Below are positions 1,324 through 9,500 of a DNA stretch of 64,000 bases, piece by piece. Below the pieces are notes generated by a model, which was not told where the DNA came from, made no database searches, and worked only from the letters and a program-made list of their open reading frames with translations. The stretch lies in NCBI GenBank assembly GCA_965219415.1, contig CBDCNP010000002.1, positions 2,080,001 to 2,144,000 on the forward strand, given 5' to 3'. The translations under genes were made by a program, and so were the position numbers. The DNA comes from Candidatus Marinacidobacterales bacterium (GTDB lineage Bacteria > Acidobacteriota > Vicinamibacteria > Marinacidobacterales > DATDRI01). Numbering within the stretch: position 1 is the stretch's first letter; each line of letters starts with the position of its first letter.

Positions 1324-2760
1324 CTACGGTAGAGGCTGACCCCGGTGCGCCTCCCACCAGGTCCGCCATCGGGCGATGGCCTTTGCCTTACCGATTTCGT
1401 CTCCTTGAGCATCGAAGGCGATGTCCTCACCGGTCGCCTCGCGCAACCCCTGAGCGGCCTGCGCCTGCAAGAACACCGGGTTGTCGGATTCCAGAAGCTC
1501 AATCAGAGCCTCAATTCCGAGTATGTTGCGGCGAGCCAGAAGCGCCTCGGCGCCCCGAAGGCGCACCCAAGGATCGTCGGCGTGATAGGCGATCTCCTCC
1601 AAGAGCTCGTCGACCTCGTCCCCCTCGGGTGCCCGAGCCAATGCCTTGACGGCATTTTCACTAACCCGTAGCTCCCCGGTGGCCATCATGCGGTGGACTT
1701 CCTCCTTCACCGACAAGAGCCGTGATATCGCATCTGCCGGCGGCTCCCCCTCGGAGTCTGCCATCTCGGCGAGCGCTTCGGTGGCAAGCTCGGCGGGATC
1801 CTTCTCGGTCTCGGAGACGGAAGTCTCCGAATCATGGTGGGCGGCCCCCGACGACATCCGGGCGGTAGTAAAAGCTAGCCACAAACCGCCTACCAGCACC
1901 GTCCCCGTCGCCCCTACCTTCATTAGAGCGGCAAGCTTCTGTTCGGCACCCATGAGATAGCGGATCACTCCGGCCAGAACAAGTCCTCCACCGAACGTAC
2001 AAACTACGGCCGGTCCGCTGGGGAGGTCGTAGGCGTAGGAAAGCGAGAGGCCGACCATGCTGACGAACGTTCCCACGATCCAACCGACCATCAGGCGGCC
2101 GACGATGCTGCGGGCGAACAGCATCGCGATCACCGTGGGGATGATCAAGAAAGAAAAAACCAGCAGTATCCCTGCCATGGGCACGCTGTAGGTGATGACC
2201 AAACCGAAGGAAGTGTAGAAGAGAAAATCCCACCAACGCACACTCCATCCCTCGGTCTCGGCTCGCTGCGGCTCGAGCGACAGAGTCAGGAACCGGCGCC
2301 GAAACTGCCAATGGAAGAGGCCGATCAAAACGTAAGCTATCGCGGTCTTGATGATGAGTGGCCACGTCGCCCATAGGAGCGCACCGGTCAGCATCGCCTC
2401 CACGAACTCCGCACCGTGAGGCGATCGGTCGGCGATCAAAATGCCGCTCGCCGACGCGACGGCGAACGAGATACCGATGATCGCTTCTTTCGGGATGCGT
2501 TGTTCCGACAACCGCAAGACCGAGAAGATCGCCGCGGCGATGAACGTGAAGAGCAACGAGTAGAGGTAGCCCGCCGTCCCATTCGGCTCGTAGCCCAGCA
2601 GGAAGGCAAAAGCTGCCCCGAGTGCTGCGATCTGCGCCAGGGCGAGATCGACGAAGATCACACCGCGGGAGACTACATGCAAGCCTAGGTAGACGTGAAT
2701 GCCCATCAACACCAGGCAGGCGACAAAAGGAGGCAGCAGAACTTCGAGTGCCAGCTCCAC
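1324..2760 (-). CDS. Zn/Mn-type metal ABC transporter permease with C-terminal HEAT-repeat-like extension
   Basis: ZnuB/MntB-like motifs (GLHVVSRGVIFVDLALAQIAALG, GILLVFSFLIIP, DLPSGPAVV); extra ~180 aa helical tail (DPWVRLRGAEAL, ALIELLESDNP). Confidence 0.85.
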   Translation of the reverse strand: MELALEVLLPPFVACLVLMGIHVYLGLHVVSRGVIFVDLALAQIAALGAAFAFLLGYEPNGTAGYLYSLLFTFIAAAIFSVLRLSEQRIPKEAIIGISFAVASASGILIADRSPHGAEFVEAMLTGALLWATWPLIIKTAIAYVLIGLFHWQFRRRFLTLSLEPQRAETEGWSVRWWDFLFYTSFGLVITYSVPMAGILLVFSFLIIPTVIAMLFARSIVGRLMVGWIVGTFVSMVGLSLSYAYDLPSGPAVVCTFGGGLVLAGVIRYLMGAEQKLAALMKVGATGTVLVGGLWLAFTTARMSSGAAHHDSETSVSETEKDPAELATEALAEMADSEGEPPADAISRLLSVKEEVHRMMATGELRVSENAVKALARAPEGDEVDELLEEIAYHADDPWVRLRGAEALLARRNILGIEALIELLESDNPVFLQAQAAQGLREATGEDIAFDAQGDEIGKAKAIARWRTWWEAHRGQPLP

Positions 2761-2769
2761 AGATCTCTC

Positions 2770-3849
2770 CTAATCACTCTCGCAGTCCGGCAACCCGGAC
2801 TTCATCATGTCGATCCAGGTGTCCACGAGTGAAAAATAATCCGAGGTTTCTTCCGACCCTCCGGTGTACTGAGGAGCGTACAGGAACTTCGCACCAGTAC
2901 GTTCGGCGATCAAGGTCGGAATCCGCTCATCGAAGTAGTCGGCGACCCAAAGCACCTGAATTTTCTCCGTGCGCATGAGCGCGATCAAATCGCCAACGTG
3001 CGCCGCCGAGGGCGGAATCCCGGGTCGCCGCTCGACGTAATTGGCGATCTGGATCCCGAATCGGTCAGTGAAGTATATCCAGTTCAGGTGATATGCGACG
3101 ATCCGTTTGCCGCGTAGGCATTCTGCCTCCCGCATCCAACCGCCCAGCTTCGAACTCAGAGGGCTACCGCCCAACTCGTTGCCCTCGAGAAAAGGCAGGA
3201 GCCGATGCTGCATCTCTAGCTCGGCGAGCTTGTCGCCGCCCACCAGCTCGACCAACTCGGAGCCGAACATCCGCTCGTAGATCCTGCGTTTGAAGTCCTT
3301 GAACCGCTCTTCGTAATAACTAGCGTTGTCCGGGTCGACGTTGCGGAGCCCGGTCTTGATGTTCTTGGCGACGACCACAGCCCGCAGGGGATCGGTATGC
3401 ACGTGGGGGTTACCGAAAATGTGAATGTCCCCACCGGCGCGACTCGGGTTGTCCGGCACCTGAAGCATGGGGACGTCGGTGGCTATCGAGACATACCCCA
3501 CTTCGCCCTCTCGAACTCGAGGGTTGCGGGCTTTGTCGATCACCGCCGGCATCCAGATCTCGAGGTCCAGTCCGGTGGCGACCAAGAGGTCGGCCCGGTT
3601 TACCATCATGGCGTAGCTCGGCTTCGCCTGAACGAAGTGGGCATCCTGGCGAGGCGCGGCGATGGCGGATACCTCCCCGCGCTCGCCCAGGATCTCTTTG
3701 GCGATATCGGCGTACACCGTGAGTGACGCGACGACGCTGAGGTCATCCTTCGGCCGTGCCTTCAATGCCGTGAGGCCGAGTACGGAGGACGCCAAAAGCG
3801 CCGCGAGCGGAAGCATCGAGAATGAAGTCATGACTTTCAGCCCTCTCAT
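2770..3849 (-). CDS. Metal ABC transporter substrate-binding protein (ZnuA/TroA family)
   Basis: Signal peptide; QDAHF, GLDLEIW, GDIHIFGNPHVHTDP, YHLNWIYF and PGIPPSAAH motifs; ATG 3849 abuts the upstream stop. Confidence 0.9.
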   Translation of the reverse strand: MRGLKVMTSFSMLPLAALLASSVLGLTALKARPKDDLSVVASLTVYADIAKEILGERGEVSAIAAPRQDAHFVQAKPSYAMMVNRADLLVATGLDLEIWMPAVIDKARNPRVREGEVGYVSIATDVPMLQVPDNPSRAGGDIHIFGNPHVHTDPLRAVVVAKNIKTGLRNVDPDNASYYEERFKDFKRRIYERMFGSELVELVGGDKLAELEMQHRLLPFLEGNELGGSPLSSKLGGWMREAECLRGKRIVAYHLNWIYFTDRFGIQIANYVERRPGIPPSAAHVGDLIALMRTEKIQVLWVADYFDERIPTLIAERTGAKFLYAPQYTGGSEETSDYFSLVDTWIDMMKSGLPDCESD

Positions 3850-3850
3850 C

Positions 3851-5224
3851 TTAATACCTTTCATGCTTATGGGGCCCGAGAGCCCATGTGACCTGGAAGA
3901 AAACCTGGTTCTCGGCCTCGGGCTCCTCGAACATGCGTGAGCTGTGTGAGTATTGGACCCGAAGCCGCACCCACTCGCTCTGCCACCAATCCACGTAGGG
4001 AGAAACGCCCCAGAGGCTAGAACCCGGCTCCTCGGGTAACTCGGTCCAGTCACCGCGCAACCCCACGAACAATCGACGATTCAGCTTGTAGGTCGCGAAG
4101 GCGTAAGTACCGAAACTATCCTGCCTCCGCTCCGCCTCCTCACGCCTCTGCCAGAGAAACTCTCCGCGCAGCTCGAGACCCTTATACAGAGCCTCGGCCG
4201 GTGGGTTCCACGCCACGTTCCAGTCGGTCCCCACGACCCACGTCCGGAAGTCGCCAAGCTCGTCGTTGACCCCGGTCGATGCGGAGATCCCAACTTCCAG
4301 ATAAGTCGCCTCCGAGAGGTCCCAATAATTTGTCTCGTGAAGTGTGACGACCGGCTCATCGAAACCCCGACCTGAAAAACTGACGTCGTTCTCATCGTTG
4401 GTCACCTGCAACCAAAGCTCGTTGTAGTCCCCCAGAACGGCTCCGGGCAACCAGGAAAGCCCGACTCCTGTGCCACGGAGTCCTTCTTCTCCGAAGAACG
4501 ACTGGTGCACCAGCGGTCGAGCCGATTGAGGCAAGGCGTGTTGGTGCCAGCGGTTCAACTTGCCGAAATCGTTGCGGAAGGCGCCGAATTTCAACCCGAG
4601 GCCTGCCGGTAAGGCCGTCCAATCTATGAACGCCTCTTCGAGGGCGAACTCACCTTCCTCGAAAACGACGAACGCCTTCGCCAAGGAGAAAGGATCGAGA
4701 GGAGCCTGGAACGCCATCTCGAACTCGGCGATCCGAAACTGATTGCGTTCGGGGTTGCCGCTGTCATCCGAGAGCTCGAGGAACGTGTCACCGGTGACAG
4801 AGATCTCTGGATTGAGCTTGTTGAGATTACGGGACTGCCCGGTGAACCTGCGTTCCGGGGTCGGCGCAAGCTCTTCTTGTCCGACGGCCGTCACGCTCCC
4901 GGCGCCTCGTCCCTCGTTCCCCCCGAGGATTTCCGCTAGCTCCGCCTCCAAAGACGCCCTCTCTTCGGCGTCGAGGGCCGATTCGCTTACCTGCGCCGCC
5001 GGTTCCACCTCGCCGATCGCCACGAGTTTCTCTTCCAACGCAGCGATGCGAGTTTCGTATGTACTCTGTAGGGAATCGAGCGCAGATTCGAGCGCAGCGA
5101 TGCGCTGCTGCAGATCGGTAATCTCCTTGCGCTCTTCCTGAGCTGCCGCCGCCCCGGCCGGCGCAGCGGCCAAACAAAGAGCTAGGACCAAATTTCTCGT
5201 GACACCTATCAATTCTGTCTTCAT
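3851..5224 (-). CDS. Outer-membrane beta-barrel (porin-like) associated with metal uptake, N-terminal coiled coil
   Basis: Signal peptide, LNPEISV, FGKLNRWHQH, alternating beta-strand pattern, His-containing C-terminus GPHKHERY. Confidence 0.75.
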   Translation of the reverse strand: MKTELIGVTRNLVLALCLAAAPAGAAAAQEERKEITDLQQRIAALESALDSLQSTYETRIAALEEKLVAIGEVEPAAQVSESALDAEERASLEAELAEILGGNEGRGAGSVTAVGQEELAPTPERRFTGQSRNLNKLNPEISVTGDTFLELSDDSGNPERNQFRIAEFEMAFQAPLDPFSLAKAFVVFEEGEFALEEAFIDWTALPAGLGLKFGAFRNDFGKLNRWHQHALPQSARPLVHQSFFGEEGLRGTGVGLSWLPGAVLGDYNELWLQVTNDENDVSFSGRGFDEPVVTLHETNYWDLSEATYLEVGISASTGVNDELGDFRTWVVGTDWNVAWNPPAEALYKGLELRGEFLWQRREEAERRQDSFGTYAFATYKLNRRLFVGLRGDWTELPEEPGSSLWGVSPYVDWWQSEWVRLRVQYSHSSRMFEEPEAENQVFFQVTWALGPHKHERY

Positions 5225-5354
5225 CGGGTCTTCCTTTTCCGTTCCCCATACCCAAGCAAAACTTCACGACCATGGCAAACTGCCGCGCAACCAGACGTTC
5301 GGACTTGGTTGCAGACGCAATCTTGCTCGCATTCAGCGAGCGAGAAGAAGTGGA

Positions 5355-5723
5355 TTATGCGGTAAAGGGGGGAGAGCGAGAGAGGCGGCAAAAACCGGAG
5401 AAATGAGGCGTGCCACCGCGGGAAGGAGCAGCGGTGCCAGCCGGTGTGAACAGAGGTACGGTGAGGCCCGAGCCTACATGCAGCGCCCCCTTGAACGTCT
5501 TGCAGACCACGCAAACGTGGGCAGGGTCCACCGTGCGAGAGTGATCGGATACCAGATCATAGCCATTTCCCGGCTGGCAATTCTCGCCGTCACTCGACGC
5601 TTGGACCGAAAACGGACCTACGTTCTCCTCGAGCAAGTGAGAGGGGGAGAGCCAAACGGATGCGGCGACGAGGCCGATCAAAAGCAGGGCGAAAACCGCC
5701 CGGAAGGAACGCTGGCTGCGCAC
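5355..5723 (-). CDS. DUF2946-like leader protein (signal/TM, CxxC, C-terminal RSPP), candidate arrest peptide
   Basis: Hydrophobic N-terminus, HVCVVC, Pro-rich linker, ends SRSPPFTA; directly upstream of the metal-uptake operon. Confidence 0.75.
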   Translation of the reverse strand: MRSQRSFRAVFALLLIGLVAASVWLSPSHLLEENVGPFSVQASSDGENCQPGNGYDLVSDHSRTVDPAHVCVVCKTFKGALHVGSGLTVPLFTPAGTAAPSRGGTPHFSGFCRLSRSPPFTA

Positions 5724-5814
5724 GGTCTTAACCTAAGCTCAAAACATCATGCGCTCGCGAACGGATCAAACTAGAGAGCCAAACTAGCAGCCAAACTGAT
5801 CGAAGACGCTAGAG

Positions 5815-6831
5815 TCAGACGATCTCGGGAGTTTCCGCGCTCACACCCCGAGAGCCGGGCTGACCTACACGGTAAGGCTCGTCGGTCTGAGGCGAGCGCC
5901 AGTTGTCGAACAATCCGATGATCTGCACGCAGGCCAGGGTGCAATACGGGGCACAGCTCTTCGGTGTGGAGAACTCGCGACGAATGTCTTGCTTCGTGTA
6001 TTGCTCGAGCGGCGCATCGGGGTAGCCTCTTTGCTGGGAGCAATAATGCACCCGCCCCTCCTCGCAGATATAGAGATAACGCGCTCCGGCTCTACATCGC
6101 CACTCGTTGGGCTTACCGTGCGCCAAATTCTCTCGGAATTGAGTGAAGCGCGCGTAGCTTCGCTTCCCGTGCTCCCGTAGGCGATCGTAGACGCTCATCT
6201 CGCTTTCGTTCAATCGCTTGAGACGACCGCGCTCGTTGTGGATGATCCCGAGCGTGGTGCTGAAGCCGAGCTCGACGGCGCGCTTGGACACGGTGACGGC
6301 GTCTTCCGGATTTTTTATGCCGCCACCAATGACCGAATTGAGGTTCACGTAGAACTCTGCATGGCGACGCAGGTTTTCCAGCTTGGAATCCAAAACATGC
6401 AGACTCTTCTTGGAGACTTCGTCCGGGTTGACGTTGTCGATAGAAATCTGAAGATGCTGCAATCCAGCCTCGTTCAGCCGCTGGATCCGCTCGGGTGTCA
6501 AGAAATAGCCGTTGGTAATGAGACCGGCGATCATCCCTCGGCGTCGAATATGACTAATGATTTCGTCGAGCTCAGGATGAAGAGTTGGCTCTCCCCCGCT
6601 TATAGTAATGATCGAAGTACCCAGCGACGCGAGATGATCCAAGCGTCGTTTCATCTCCTCCAGGGGCACCGGCTCGGAGAAATCGTCGAACTCGTTGCAA
6701 TACGTGCAGGCGAGATTGCAACGCCGCATCGGGATAATGTGGACGAGGATCGGGTGGCGCGTGGAGAGTAGCCCACGGGCGATCATCCAAAATTCAGTCA
6801 GCCGGATTCTTACCTTGTTTCTCGTCTTCAT
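5815..6831 (-). CDS. Radical SAM protein with C-terminal SPASM/twitch-like cysteines
   Basis: CNLACTYC motif, SGGEP, C-terminal CRAG...C...CAPYCTLAC. Confidence 0.9.
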
Positions 6832-6986
6832 GAGCCAGAACTACAGGGGCTAGGCCCCACCAATTTCGCTAAATATTACCGTTTCCCGCAAGAGGGTCAA
6901 GCGTCCACCGATGAATGGGCCCACGCCCAGCCAAACAGGCTGGACAAAACCGCATAGGCCGTTTCGTCCTCTTTTCTGGGGTGGTT

Positions 6987-7637
6987 CTATTCGCTGCTGA
7001 TTATGTCGACGCCCGGCGGCAGCTCGAGCTCGAAGGCCTTGGGGGGGAGAGGCTCGTTTACACGAACGTCCTGAAATTCCAAAATCGTCGTATCCTTGTT
7101 CAACTCATGAAACACCGTGCGGTCCGGAGTCCAGTTCTCCTTGTTGAGTGTCATGTCGATGGCGGCAAAGAGCGATGCGGCGGAGTCCGGCTTCGGAACC
7201 AGCTTCAAAACCACGTGCTGGTCATCCTCTCCGGCGAGACTCACATCATAGTGCTTACCAATCTCGGCATTCGATTTCCCGAACCCGATGAGCAGATCGG
7301 TGCCAGCCCCTCGCTTTTGCCCCTGCTTGAACTCCTGAACCTGATGGGCAACGGGGTTATAGAGCAGAACCTTGTCATCTTTGACGAGGAGCACTTTGCT
7401 GTCTGGAGGAGCGTACTCCCACCGAATGTTCCCAGGAACCTTCATGTACAGTTTGCCCGAGCTCTTCTCTTCTTCTTCCAAGATGTGGTCGCGGTTGGTC
7501 TGCTCGAAGTCGGCTGCGAGAGTCTCGAGACTGTCACCTGCTTTGCTCATGGCAGCCAGGATCTCCTCCAGACGGTCGAGGCCGAAGGAAGAGCTGGCGG
7601 TGAAGAAGACGATAACGAATGTGGCGAGAAGCTTCAT
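6987..7637 (-). CDS. lolA: Outer-membrane lipoprotein carrier protein LolA
   Basis: Signal peptide, ADFEQ...SGKLYMKVPGNIRWEY, C-terminal FELELPPGVDII. Confidence 0.8.
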   Translation of the reverse strand: MKLLATFVIVFFTASSSFGLDRLEEILAAMSKAGDSLETLAADFEQTNRDHILEEEEKSSGKLYMKVPGNIRWEYAPPDSKVLLVKDDKVLLYNPVAHQVQEFKQGQKRGAGTDLLIGFGKSNAEIGKHYDVSLAGEDDQHVVLKLVPKPDSAASLFAAIDMTLNKENWTPDRTVFHELNKDTTILEFQDVRVNEPLPPKAFELELPPGVDIISSE

Positions 7638-7657
7638 GGCTTTATCGCCTTTAACCT

Positions 7658-8380
7658 CTAACCCACCTCGCCGGTATTCACGAAATGCGGGGCGTTGGCG
7701 TGGTCGACGACTCGTCCGTCCAGCATCTCGATTACGCGATGCCCGACTTCCGCCGCCTCTGGGTTATGCGTGATCATCACGATGGTCTGCTTTTTCTTGC
7801 GATTGAGGTCGACTAGCAGCTCCAATACCTGACGGGAGTTTTCGGAATCGAGGTTTCCGGTGGGCTCGTCGGCCAGGACAATCGCGGGTTGGTTCACCAA
7901 CGCGCGGGCCAGAGCGACTCGCTGCTGCTCGCCGACCGAAAGTTCGAGCGGTTTGTGATGCAGCTTGTGGGCCAAACCTACAACGTCCATCAACTCTGCG
8001 ATCTCGCCTCCACTCGGGTGTCCATTGCCGAAGATCTGCCGCGCGATCTCGATGTTTCCCTGCACGGTCAGCGTCGGCAGGAGATTGAAACGCTGAAACA
8101 CGAAGCCGATCTTTTTGCGGCGGAGACGAGTACGCTCGGCGTCGTTGGTGAGACTGAGATCTGCGCCGTCAACGATGACTTTGCCGGAGCTAGGACGTGC
8201 CAAGCCACCCATGAGATGAAGGAGCGTGGACTTGCCGCACCCAGAGGGACCCATGATGGAGACGAACTCACCGGCCTGGATCTCGACATTGACTCCTCGG
8301 AGAGCCGGGACCTCCACCTTCCCGACCTTATAAATCTTCCGAAGGTCGACGACTTTGAGAATGCTTCCGGTCGATTCCAT
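7658..8380 (-). CDS. ABC transporter ATP-binding protein (LolD/MacB-like)
   Basis: Walker [34 protein letters not shown]. Confidence 0.95.
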
Positions 8381-8393
8381 TACGCGGTTCTAG

Positions 8394-9500
8394 CTACTCG
8401 TAGTTCAGGGCTTCTACCGGATCCAGCTTAGCGGCACGATAGGCAGGGTACAAGGCCCCCAACAACCCGCCACAGATGCCCAGAAGTGCAGCGATGACGA
8501 ACTGACTCGGGACGAGAGAAACGGTGAGGGTCGGAAACAAGGTCAGTATGGTGAAACGACCCAACAGAGAAAAGCCATAACCAACGACCACACCGATAAG
8601 GCATATGAGGAACGACTCGGTGATGACCAGCCGGATGATGTACATCTTGCCGGCTCCCAGCGCCTTCAGCACACCGATCTCTCTCGTTCGCTCGATGATC
8701 GATGTGTACATGGCCAACAGAATCACCAAGAAGCTGATGAGGACGGCGAGGAATGAAAGCACTCGGACGAATTGCTTCAGACCCAGCGCGTTTTCCCTGA
8801 GCTCTTCCACGAACCCTTCCATGGCCGTCACTTTGTAACCCTCGAATTTCTTTTCGAGCGCGGCGGCCACTTCACCCACGTCGCTCCCCTCGTTGACCCT
8901 GATCATGAAGAGCGACACCTTGCCCGGCTGGCCGCTCCCTTCCTGGAGCGTGGCGAGGTCCATATAGATGCGAACCCCGGCGCCGGCCTTGCAGATACCG
9001 GCAATTTCGAAGTCCTGGCCCATCATGGGAATGCGATCTCCCAGGTCCAGCTGGTCGGCACTCGAAAGCACGGTATCAATGATAAGGTCGTCGGGTTTTT
9101 GGAACGCCGTGCCGTCCACGATCTGCACCCCATTGCCGATTTGATTATAGGTATCCAGGTCGACTCCAAAGATCGAGACCAACTTCTTGGTCCCTTTGAT
9201 GCTCATTATCCGCCAGAGCAGGACGGGAGCAACGGCCCTCACTCCATTCACTTCCCCCAGTTTCTCTCCCAAGCGTTCCGACATCACACCCGTATTGAGA
9301 ACCAGAAACGGAGATGAGTCCGGGCCCATGAACATGATGTCCGCTCCCACATTTGTGATCCGATCGGCGTACTCGTTGAGCGATCCATCCGCCAAGCCCA
9401 CGATGACCAGGACCATCGAGACCCCCAACGCCACCGACAAAATGCCGATACCGGTCCGGGTCTTGCGGTAAAAGATGTTGGAGAGGGGGAGATTGGCCAT
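8394..9500 (-). CDS. ABC transporter permease (MacB/FtsX family)
   Basis: N-terminal TM, periplasmic domain, ERTREIGVLKALGA, YPAYRAAKLDPVEAL. Confidence 0.9.
   Translation of the reverse strand: MANLPLSNIFYRKTRTGIGILSVALGVSMVLVIVGLADGSLNEYADRITNVGADIMFMGPDSSPFLVLNTGVMSERLGEKLGEVNGVRAVAPVLLWRIMSIKGTKKLVSIFGVDLDTYNQIGNGVQIVDGTAFQKPDDLIIDTVLSSADQLDLGDRIPMMGQDFEIAGICKAGAGVRIYMDLATLQEGSGQPGKVSLFMIRVNEGSDVGEVAAALEKKFEGYKVTAMEGFVEELRENALGLKQFVRVLSFLAVLISFLVILLAMYTSIIERTREIGVLKALGAGKMYIIRLVITESFLICLIGVVVGYGFSLLGRFTILTLFPTLTVSLVPSQFVIAALLGICGGLLGALYPAYRAAKLDPVEALNYE

Follow-up and report, generated by a model that had tools for sequence, protein, structure and literature searches.

The 64,000-nucleotide (nt) stretch of DNA analyzed here (the window; positions 2,080,001 to 2,144,000 of contig CBDCNP010000002.1, from a Candidatus Marinacidobacterales bacterium whose genome is labelled G000) carries a small leader gene, followed on the same strand by genes for a porin, a ZnuA-family substrate-binding protein and an ABC-3 (ZnuB-type) permease. 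All coordinates are those of the whole stretch. By analogy with characterized leaders, the product of this gene, protein P0001, is probably an arrest-type, metal-sensing peptide. On balance we favor the view that it is a regulatory arrest peptide of the CruR and CutF kind that controls the porin, ZnuA and ZnuB genes, with unmasking of the porin gene's Shine-Dalgarno (SD) sequence narrowly preferred as the coupling step. What is most likely new here is an RSPP motif, an acidobacterial host, a porin with a zinc-type importer as the regulated genes and a protein below the Pfam threshold, since the mechanism class itself is already known.

Conserved motifs and conserved position of the leader

An earlier note, made from the letters of this DNA, had described a 122-residue open reading frame (ORF) with an export-type N-terminus, the sequence HVCVVC and a C-terminal RSPP. 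All of these are present as described, and the motifs are invariant in 24 of the 24 family members that we aligned. The alignment as a whole is variable, with members 20-84% identical and a mean column identity of 33%, and nine positions do not vary at all (H29, H69, C71, C74, P90, S115, R116, P118 and P119). The distance from the second Cys to the Arg is 40, 41 or 44 residues in every member (41 in the window), and the RxPP motif stands 1, 3 or 5 residues from the stop in 23 of them. These motifs are far beyond chance. Cys71 and Cys74 are also kept at three loci outside the alignment (L049, L050 and L051). An N-terminal hydrophobic stretch, 17 residues long in the window protein and a candidate Sec signal or signal-anchor by its sequence, is found in all 24 members.

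The residue before the two prolines is the one place where the C-terminal motif changes. Among the 24 members, 17 have RSPP, six have RAPP and one has RALPP, with an inserted Leu and a long tail; beyond the alignment, RGPP occurs in G042 and RAPP in G038 and G010. Where a literal RAPP might have been looked for, a few residues before the stop, the window thus has RSPP, and other clades have RAPP or RGPP in the same column, which ties RSPP to known arrest motifs. The Pro, Arg and Ser codons of SRxPP differ synonymously among genomes, indicating that selection acts on the peptide.

In 14 of 14 leader loci the leader lies directly upstream of a porin homologue. The ZnuA gene and the ABC-3/HEAT permease gene follow in the window and in five relatives (G003, G018, G012, G020 and G001; in G001 the permease ORF is the only one of these genes to be called). 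The gene set further upstream varies by lineage, and the leader-porin-ZnuA-permease block is retained. As the earlier note had proposed, then, the leader heads a metal-uptake operon in a non-proteobacterial lineage: the operon is of porin/ZnuA/ABC-3 type, the lineage is Acidobacteriota and the architecture is that of CruR.

By the pattern of its changes, the leader ORF is a real gene. It closes with TAA at 5357-5355, and its product ends ...GFCRLSRSPPFTA, SRSPP being followed by F-T-A and the stop. Among the seven leaders of family f1, differences at codon positions 1, 2 and 3 number 654, 544 and 1150, the third-position differences being about twice those at positions 1 and 2; codon differences in the leader comprise 966 non-synonymous and 605 synonymous ones. 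An ORF on the opposite strand (5199..5774, +) was rejected as the real gene, as the motifs, the synonymous changes and the codon-position pattern all fit the minus-strand frame.

In the searches made, this is a small, lineage-restricted family: among 1.84 billion cluster representatives, 13 clusters matched its profile. Within Candidatus Marinacidobacterales the leader frame is open in 14 of the 55 genomes, and it is open in 11 database clusters as well. Leaving out the window's own genome, it is found in 5 of 7 genomes of family f1, 8 of 19 of family f2 and 0 of 28 of family f3. One of the 14 loci comes from an unpublished genome (G007), on which none of the conclusions depends. Scans with the single protein added two close genome loci, the metagenome locus L036 and one truncated locus. 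Two matches of these scans were rejected: L023, a false match within a RecJ-like gene, and one further locus that was likewise spurious.

Likeness to CruR, CutF and other arrest peptides

The closest parallel is CruR (Bp2923) of Bordetella pertussis, an exported-type DUF2946 protein and the prototype of PF11162 (PMC9426467). In CruR the CxxC lies 45 residues before the Arg and the motif three residues before the stop; the gene is separated by a 162-nt spacer (cruR-bfrG) from that of a TonB-dependent transporter, and copper sensed by the CXXC ends the arrest, which permits Rho-dependent termination (PMC9426467). When CruR arrests a ribosome in vitro, its toeprint puts one Pro codon of the motif in the P site and the other in the A site (PMC12992588). 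Like CruR, the window leader is a small protein of exported type whose gene comes first in an operon encoding an outer-membrane protein for metal uptake; both have an invariant CxxC 40-45 residues upstream of R-x-P-P, a motif three residues before the stop and a long spacer to the next gene (130 nt, compared with 162 nt). The polarity proposed below, in which a stall means ON and metal means release and OFF, is also that of CruR.

The two differ in several respects. CruR has RAPP where the window has RSPP, and its CxxC-to-Arg spacing is 45 +/- 2, a published range that excludes the window's 41 and includes the 44 of some relatives. The window protein has no PF11162 match, sub-threshold matches being confined to its relatives. 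The host here belongs to the Acidobacteriota and that of CruR to the Proteobacteria, and the regulated genes encode a porin and a ZnuA/ABC-3 importer instead of a TonB-dependent copper transporter. The invariant His after the hydrophobic segment is an additional feature of the present family.

The earlier note had credited both CruR and CutF with CxxC and RAPP-like motifs. CutF of Rhodobacter capsulatus (cutFOG), however, has CxxxC and PPP in place of CxxC and RAPP (preprint 10.1101/2025.02.05.636593; PMC9973294) and works with the opposite polarity. Its stall, which is induced by copper, melts a stem-loop that hides the cutO SD (10.1101/2025.02.05.636593; PMC9973294). A Sec-targeted nascent sensor, with a stalled ribosome that opens an mRNA structure hiding the SD of the next gene, is what CutF and the coupling proposed in the earlier note have in common. 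In CutF, however, arrest depends on EF-P, the target is a detoxifying oxidase and the SD is masked by a local stem-loop, whereas the masking partner in the window would be the stall codons themselves, more than 100 nt upstream, and is statistically unsupported there. A third group, the monitors of the ApdA/ApdP/SecM type, shares the C-terminal R-(A/G/S)-P-P core, the small secretory or membrane protein and the co-directional downstream gene; unlike the present leader, these regulate Sec/YidC components and have no metal site (PMC7897499, PMC10951233, PMC12992588).

Published surveys touch on this kind of operon from the side. In a 2014 Caulobacter paper, DUF2946 genes were among those changed in a zur mutant. 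The supplement of PMC12992588 counts 54 RAPP upstream ORFs before "carbohydrate porin" genes, against 5 AAPP controls, and has RAPP upstream ORFs before zinc-regulated TonB receptors as well. That survey extracted RAPP and RGPP only, so that RSPP leaders such as the window's fall outside it, and its main text mentions neither zinc nor ZnuA nor porin. The portions of the DUF2946 literature consulted describe no ZnuA/ABC-3 or porin operon under such a leader. Three small supplements of PMC9973294 have no entries for ZnuA, porin or Acidobacteria, and its neighbour lists (File S1) could hold such operons.

Proposed mechanism

From the gene, its motifs and their distances, and the operon, we infer arrest, metal sensing, polarity and coupling as follows. 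The leader would be translated first, from its own promoter, and its hydrophobic segment would target the nascent chain to the membrane. Translation would then stall three codons before the stop, with ...S-R-S-P carried by the tRNA in the P site while the A site contains the second Pro codon; by analogy with the CruR toeprint, Pro118 (5372-5370) is predicted to occupy the P site and Pro119 (5369-5367) the A site. At this point HxCxxC, 41 residues upstream of the Arg, would be just outside the exit tunnel, where it and His29 could jointly bind a metal, which we guess to be zinc because the regulated genes are of the ZnuA/ABC-3 type. Metal binding or folding might pull on the chain and end the stall. 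While the ribosome is stalled, the porin, ZnuA and ZnuB genes would be expressed, and upon release they would be shut down, as one would expect of an uptake system and as was shown for CruR. As for the coupling, a stalled ribosome would keep the pyrimidine-rich stall codons off the purine-rich SD of the porin gene.

Points that weigh against the proposal

Several results count against parts of this scheme, the first group of them bearing on descent and on distribution. The earlier note had suggested a search with the DUF2946 profile hidden Markov model (HMM), and P0001 does not match PF11162 (gathering score 23.7 bits), even at E <= 10. Sub-threshold matches, which speak for a link, were obtained for 6 of the 24 relatives, the best being P0026 (20.6 bits, E = 8.1e-4, profile positions 20-117 of 117), so that the relatedness is remote. 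On the same side, when the 24-sequence alignment was compared by hhalign with four acidobacterial PF11162 matches, the probability was 52% (E = 1.4e-4) over 61 columns that span CxxC to RxPP with both motifs in register, the reference alignment holding four sequences; a smaller alignment gave 18.5% and aligned at the C-terminus alone. Given the missing PF11162 match and this first, low hhalign value, common ancestry with CruR and CutF is uncertain, and convergence on CxxC plus RxPP is possible. A search of G000 found no canonical DUF2946 protein, its best match (E = 1.29) lying elsewhere than in the leader ORF, and DUF2946 scored in 4 of 201 sampled Acidobacteriota genomes. P0001 is therefore best described as a leader that is CruR-like in architecture and may be a remote relative, not as a demonstrated DUF2946 member.

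Variation within the order has to be considered as well. In G010 (L051), the His of HxCxxC is replaced by Arg. Porin homologues occur in 19 of the 55 genomes, and at seven porin-homologue loci examined in the order there is no upstream RxPP ORF; the porin does not need the leader, which is an optional add-on. The leader of G026 (L052, C1:2423163-2423489) is frameshifted before the SRSPP region and differs at its end, with HLCGAC retained and an intact porin gene downstream. Either the leader has decayed in this genome or the assembly is in error there.

A further point concerns the strength of the RSPP core. In the proxy proteome of G000, RSPP is not depleted (32 observed, 34.9 expected); RAPP (0.38) and RGPP (0.27) are. 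The strongest arrest cores are reported to be RAPP and RGPP, the change of Ala to Ser being "partially permissive" in ApdA/ApdP, and RSPP is described as under-represented in proteomes (PMC12992588). The mean bias published for Acidobacteriota is 0.20 (PMC12992588, supplement file 1), and beside it our crude proxy-proteome figure for RSPP may be off. Taken at face value, the lack of depletion suggests that RSPP alone may stall weakly in G000 and may need its conserved GF.R.S context. The GF.R.S stretch is the better conserved in the RSPP clade of the 24-member alignment, and stalling by RSPP only in context would fit both this conservation and the published rule that weaker cores require more upstream contacts (PMC12992588). 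KSPP was found at about three times its expectation in the same proxy proteome (41 against 14.2).

The spacer RNA and the coupling step

Further objections concern the masking of the SD. The earlier note had reported that the end of the leader is complementary to the purine tract before the porin gene, with two hairpins in between. Both hairpins do exist in the window, the complementary stretches lie where they were said to lie, and the long-range helix between them is part of the minimum free energy (MFE) fold. Aligned by hand, 5254-5233, which reads UGGGUAUGGGGAACGGAAAAGG, and 5368-5351 give 8/9 pairs plus 8 pairs with one bulge. The mean pairing probability of the window SD with the leader tail is 0.70, and imposing the footprint of a stalled ribosome raises the probability that the SD is unpaired from 0.30 to 0.58.

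Set against controls, this helix does not exceed chance in the window. Folding 5215-5400 gives z = -0.15 relative to 200 shuffles, 83 of which are at least as good, and the tail/SD duplex, at -19.4 kcal/mol, compares with -18.1 +/- 4.2 for random genomic 42-mers, 35% of which do as well. After synonymous recoding the window tail still has a mean SD pairing of 0.50, and 5% of recoded tails reach the observed 0.70. Because S, R and P codons are pyrimidine-rich and an SD is purine-rich, the two will always look complementary. Across loci, recoded tails pair at a mean of 0.23-0.74, and the observed tail is in the top 5% at three of ten loci only. Over the 14 loci, pairing of the SD with the leader tail has P >= 0.5 in seven, 0.33-0.49 in four and <= 0.12 in three, the last of which count against the masking stem; in two of the low-pairing loci and in G042 the SD pairs inside the spacer instead. 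With a ribosome footprint imposed, SD accessibility rises clearly at no more than three of the 14 loci. The consensus structure of the seven f1 sequences retains a 4-bp UCCC:GGGA helix between Ser-Pro codons and the SD, and its covariation term of +0.42 offers no support. Hence the SD-masking stem of the earlier note, at chance level in the window and paired in half of the loci, is not conserved as such, and of the elements that the note had expected to find in homologues, CxxC and RxPP are conserved but the stem is without covariation support.

The duplex is strong in two sister genera only. In support of the coupling, the codons CGU-UCC-CCU-CCC of G006 and G003 pair with the SD in a duplex of 8 bp (plus 6 bp) that 0 of 1000 and 1 of 1000 random 42-mers, respectively, match. 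Both Ser codons of the window motif are TCT, a rare Ser codon in G000 (9.4% of Ser codons), which hints at some constraint at the nucleotide level.

With respect to other RNA elements, an Rfam scan of 5100-5900 gave no family at or near threshold (the one chance match, to a long non-coding RNA, scored 13.4 of 55 bits), indicating that no known riboswitch lies there. Hairpin 1, which begins 13 nt past the leader stop, is kept in the f1 consensus structure, with some pairs changed on one side and none on both, and by eye other genera have a hairpin of different sequence at the same site. Hairpin 2 is absent from the consensus of the seven f1 sequences.

Other explanations

The foremost alternative is coupling through Rho, as in CruR. 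In this case the stalled ribosome would cover a C-rich Rho-loading tract, its release would allow termination in the spacer, and the pairing with the SD would be incidental. The 78 nt around the stall site and the stop are 40% C and 17% G (C minus G = 0.23), which places them in the top 0.5% of 20,000 random 78-nt windows of the genome, and at all 14 loci C makes up 38-49% and G 17-26% of the homologous tract. The spacer is long at every one of these loci (76-143 nt), as it is in cruR-bfrG (162 nt; PMC9426467); the hairpin after the stop, which persists while its sequence changes, could act as a pause element; and the chance-level duplex of the window is what incidental pairing would give. Much of the C-richness, however, is dictated by S-R-S-P-P and neighbouring codons, and the exceptional duplex between stall codons and SD in G006 and G003 would be superfluous if Rho did the work. 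We regard Rho coupling as possible and, as the coupling step, nearly as probable as SD unmasking, which is rated slightly ahead of it; both could act together.

A second alternative is a monitor of secretion or redox state that senses no metal, in which the stall is released by Sec pulling or by a periplasmic disulfide of the CxxC, tuning the output of the outer-membrane protein to the capacity for export or oxidative folding. Such a role would agree with the combination of an export signal and a C-terminal RxPP that the leader has in common with SecM and ApdA/ApdP (PMC12992588), and the CutF preprint proposes that disulfide formation contributes to stall release (10.1101/2025.02.05.636593). 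The genes downstream, on the other hand, encode a metal-type importer and not Sec/YidC components, and an invariant His29 and near-invariant His69 beside two Cys suggest a metal site rather than just a disulfide, so that we consider this explanation improbable.

Least probable of all is that P0001 works as a small envelope protein, either a metallochaperone or a membrane-anchored partner of the porin or ZnuA, with SRxPP as a structural or sorting feature: the export-type N-terminus, the conserved His and Cys ligands, the strict co-occurrence with the porin and the lack of RSPP depletion would all suit such a protein, but it evolves fast outside its nine invariant positions, its C-terminal tetrapeptide admits only S, A and G, the residues compatible with an arrest motif, that motif keeps a near-fixed distance from CxxC and stop, a constraint understandable for a nascent chain within the tunnel, and CruR and CutF are reported to be hardly or not detectable in vivo (PMC9426467; PMC9973294).

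Operon and genomic context

The features of the locus are collected in Table 1. The AlphaFold model of the porin, P0002 (pLDDT 78.8), has helices at residues 24-69 and 86-101 and strands from 142 to 449, and its fold matches in Foldseek are OmpT, OprP/OprO, OprB and DcaP (E 1e-10 to 1e-12). The long N-terminal coiled coil before the barrel (residues 24-101 in the model) resembles that of DcaP of Acinetobacter. A sequence search of the PDB with P0002 gave no match, the relationship being seen via the fold search, and in Pfam there is a weak BBP2 match and nothing else. At E <= 1e-5 more than 500 proteins belong to its family; nearly all lack a name, and those with a stated source come mostly from Acidobacteriota. 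The porin ATG is at 5224-5222. The ZnuA gene likely starts at ATG 3864, overlapping the porin stop by 14 nt, with an alternative ATG at 3849, 1 nt past that stop; the best NCBIfam match of its product is AztC (2e-26), far under the AztC cut-off. The permease is extended at its C-terminus by about 200 residues that contain HEAT repeats, a fusion also found in G018 (family f2). There is no ATPase gene in the porin/ZnuA/permease cluster, and a znuA-znuC pair lies elsewhere in the genome (L082).

Table 1. Coordinates of the features discussed, in the window or, in the last three rows, on contig C3 of the same genome
Feature	Coordinates	Strand	Remarks
Leader gene (protein P0001)	5355..5723	-	122 codons plus stop, GTG start
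Promoter-like element of the leader	5741..5769	-	TTGATC (5769-5764), 17-nt spacer, TGTTTT (5746-5741); read from the sequence, inferred start
N-terminal hydrophobic segment, residues 9-25	5649..5699	-	AVFALLLIGLVAASVWL, preceded by three Arg; read from the translation
His29	5637..5639	-	just C-terminal of the hydrophobic segment; invariant in 24/24
HVCVVC (His69, Cys71, Cys74)	5502..5519	-	candidate metal-binding motif; C71 and C74 invariant in 24/24
S-R-S-P-P codons	5367..5381	-	TCT CGC TCT CCC CCC; S115, R116, P118 and P119 invariant
C-rich, G-poor tract	5322..5399	-	over stall site, stop and first 33 nt of the spacer; possible rut-like site
Candidate anti-SD stretch	5351..5368	-	CCUUUACCGCAUAAUCCA; last codons, stop and first spacer bases; pairs with 5254-5233 in the MFE fold
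Leader-porin spacer	5225..5354	-	130 nt
Hairpin 1	5325..5341	-	GCUCGC-UGAAU-GCGAGC; in the fold
Hairpin 2	5287..5312	-	GCAACCA...UGGUUGC; present in the window
Purine tract with porin SD	5230..5254	-	SD GGAAAAGGAAG (5240-5230), 5 nt before the ATG; read from the sequence
Porin gene (P0002)	3851..5224	-	457 residues; signal peptide, N-terminal coiled coil and beta-barrel (AlphaFold, Foldseek)
ZnuA-family substrate-binding protein gene	2770..3864	-	PF01297, 1.4e-41
ABC-3 (ZnuB-type) permease gene, with C-terminal HEAT repeats	1324..2760	-	PF00950, 1.2e-30; HEAT_2, 6.5e-5
RAPP-ending ORF L054	C3: 4840162-4840881	-	
RAPP-ending ORF L055	C3: 4417227-4417553	-	
RAPP-ending ORF L056	C3: 406556-407038	-	

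In the ten loci printed and aligned, a TTGAYC-17 nt-TANNNT layout is found upstream of the leader without exception, the -10 of the window (TGTTTT) being the weakest of the ten. A consensus scan for promoters and terminators returned neither a sigma-70 match ahead of the leader nor a terminator within the spacer; a terminator-like match at 5701-5687 falls within the 5' end of the leader and was disregarded. Just upstream of the promoter-like -35 of the window leader, and overlapping it, are three direct AGTTTG(G/A) repeats (5766-5797, minus strand). Genus g1 has AGTTTGG tandem repeats with a period of 12-13 nt at this -35, and genus g9 has tandem repeats of GGCCCAACT, with a period of 9 nt, at the homologous position. 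Repeat copy number varies among genomes (the window and L002, L003, L036, L007 and L008). From their sequence, these repeats could be either a regulator-binding array or slippage-prone DNA.

Upstream of the leader and on the same strand (5815-9500) are genes for an FtsX/MacB-type permease, an ABC ATPase, a LolA-like protein and a radical SAM enzyme, and their order is kept in family f1 (G003 and G006). Two other ZnuA loci in G000 have no such leaders.

Three further small ORFs of G000, all on contig C3, end in RAPP plus 1-3 residues. Two of them encode a hydrophobic segment and CxxC and precede genes for TonB-dependent receptors (Plug and barrel); the other is His-rich and precedes an OEP and HlyD_D23 efflux pair. 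All three are under the PF11162 threshold (best E = 0.079). With these additional leaders, the organism appears to use this leader class more than once.

Implications

Nascent-peptide metal sensing has so far been demonstrated for copper only, in CruR and CutF. If the proposal is true, the principle would reach a further metal and a further phylum, with the same geometry guarding a porin and a zinc-type importer, and both the Pfam model and a survey limited to RAPP and RGPP would overlook whole branches of such leaders. There is also a lesson for annotation, in that these leaders sit in genomes as unnamed "hypothetical proteins" or as uncalled ORFs.

A more specific version, which we offer tentatively and hold to be doubtful at present, is a zinc-responsive nascent-chain sensor in which a Cys2His2-type site on the emerging peptide releases an R-(S/A/G)-P-P stall and so places the porin and ZnuA/ZnuB under post-transcriptional control. 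Since G000 has a single Fur-family gene, the leader might do part of the job that usually falls to Zur. The occurrence of RSPP, RAPP and RGPP within one family provides a natural series for asking how the residue before Pro-Pro tunes arrest. If the sensor proves to be real, variation among S, A and G at the stall position would act over evolution as a dial for how strongly the chain arrests, offset in the RSPP clade by the more conserved GF.R.S context.

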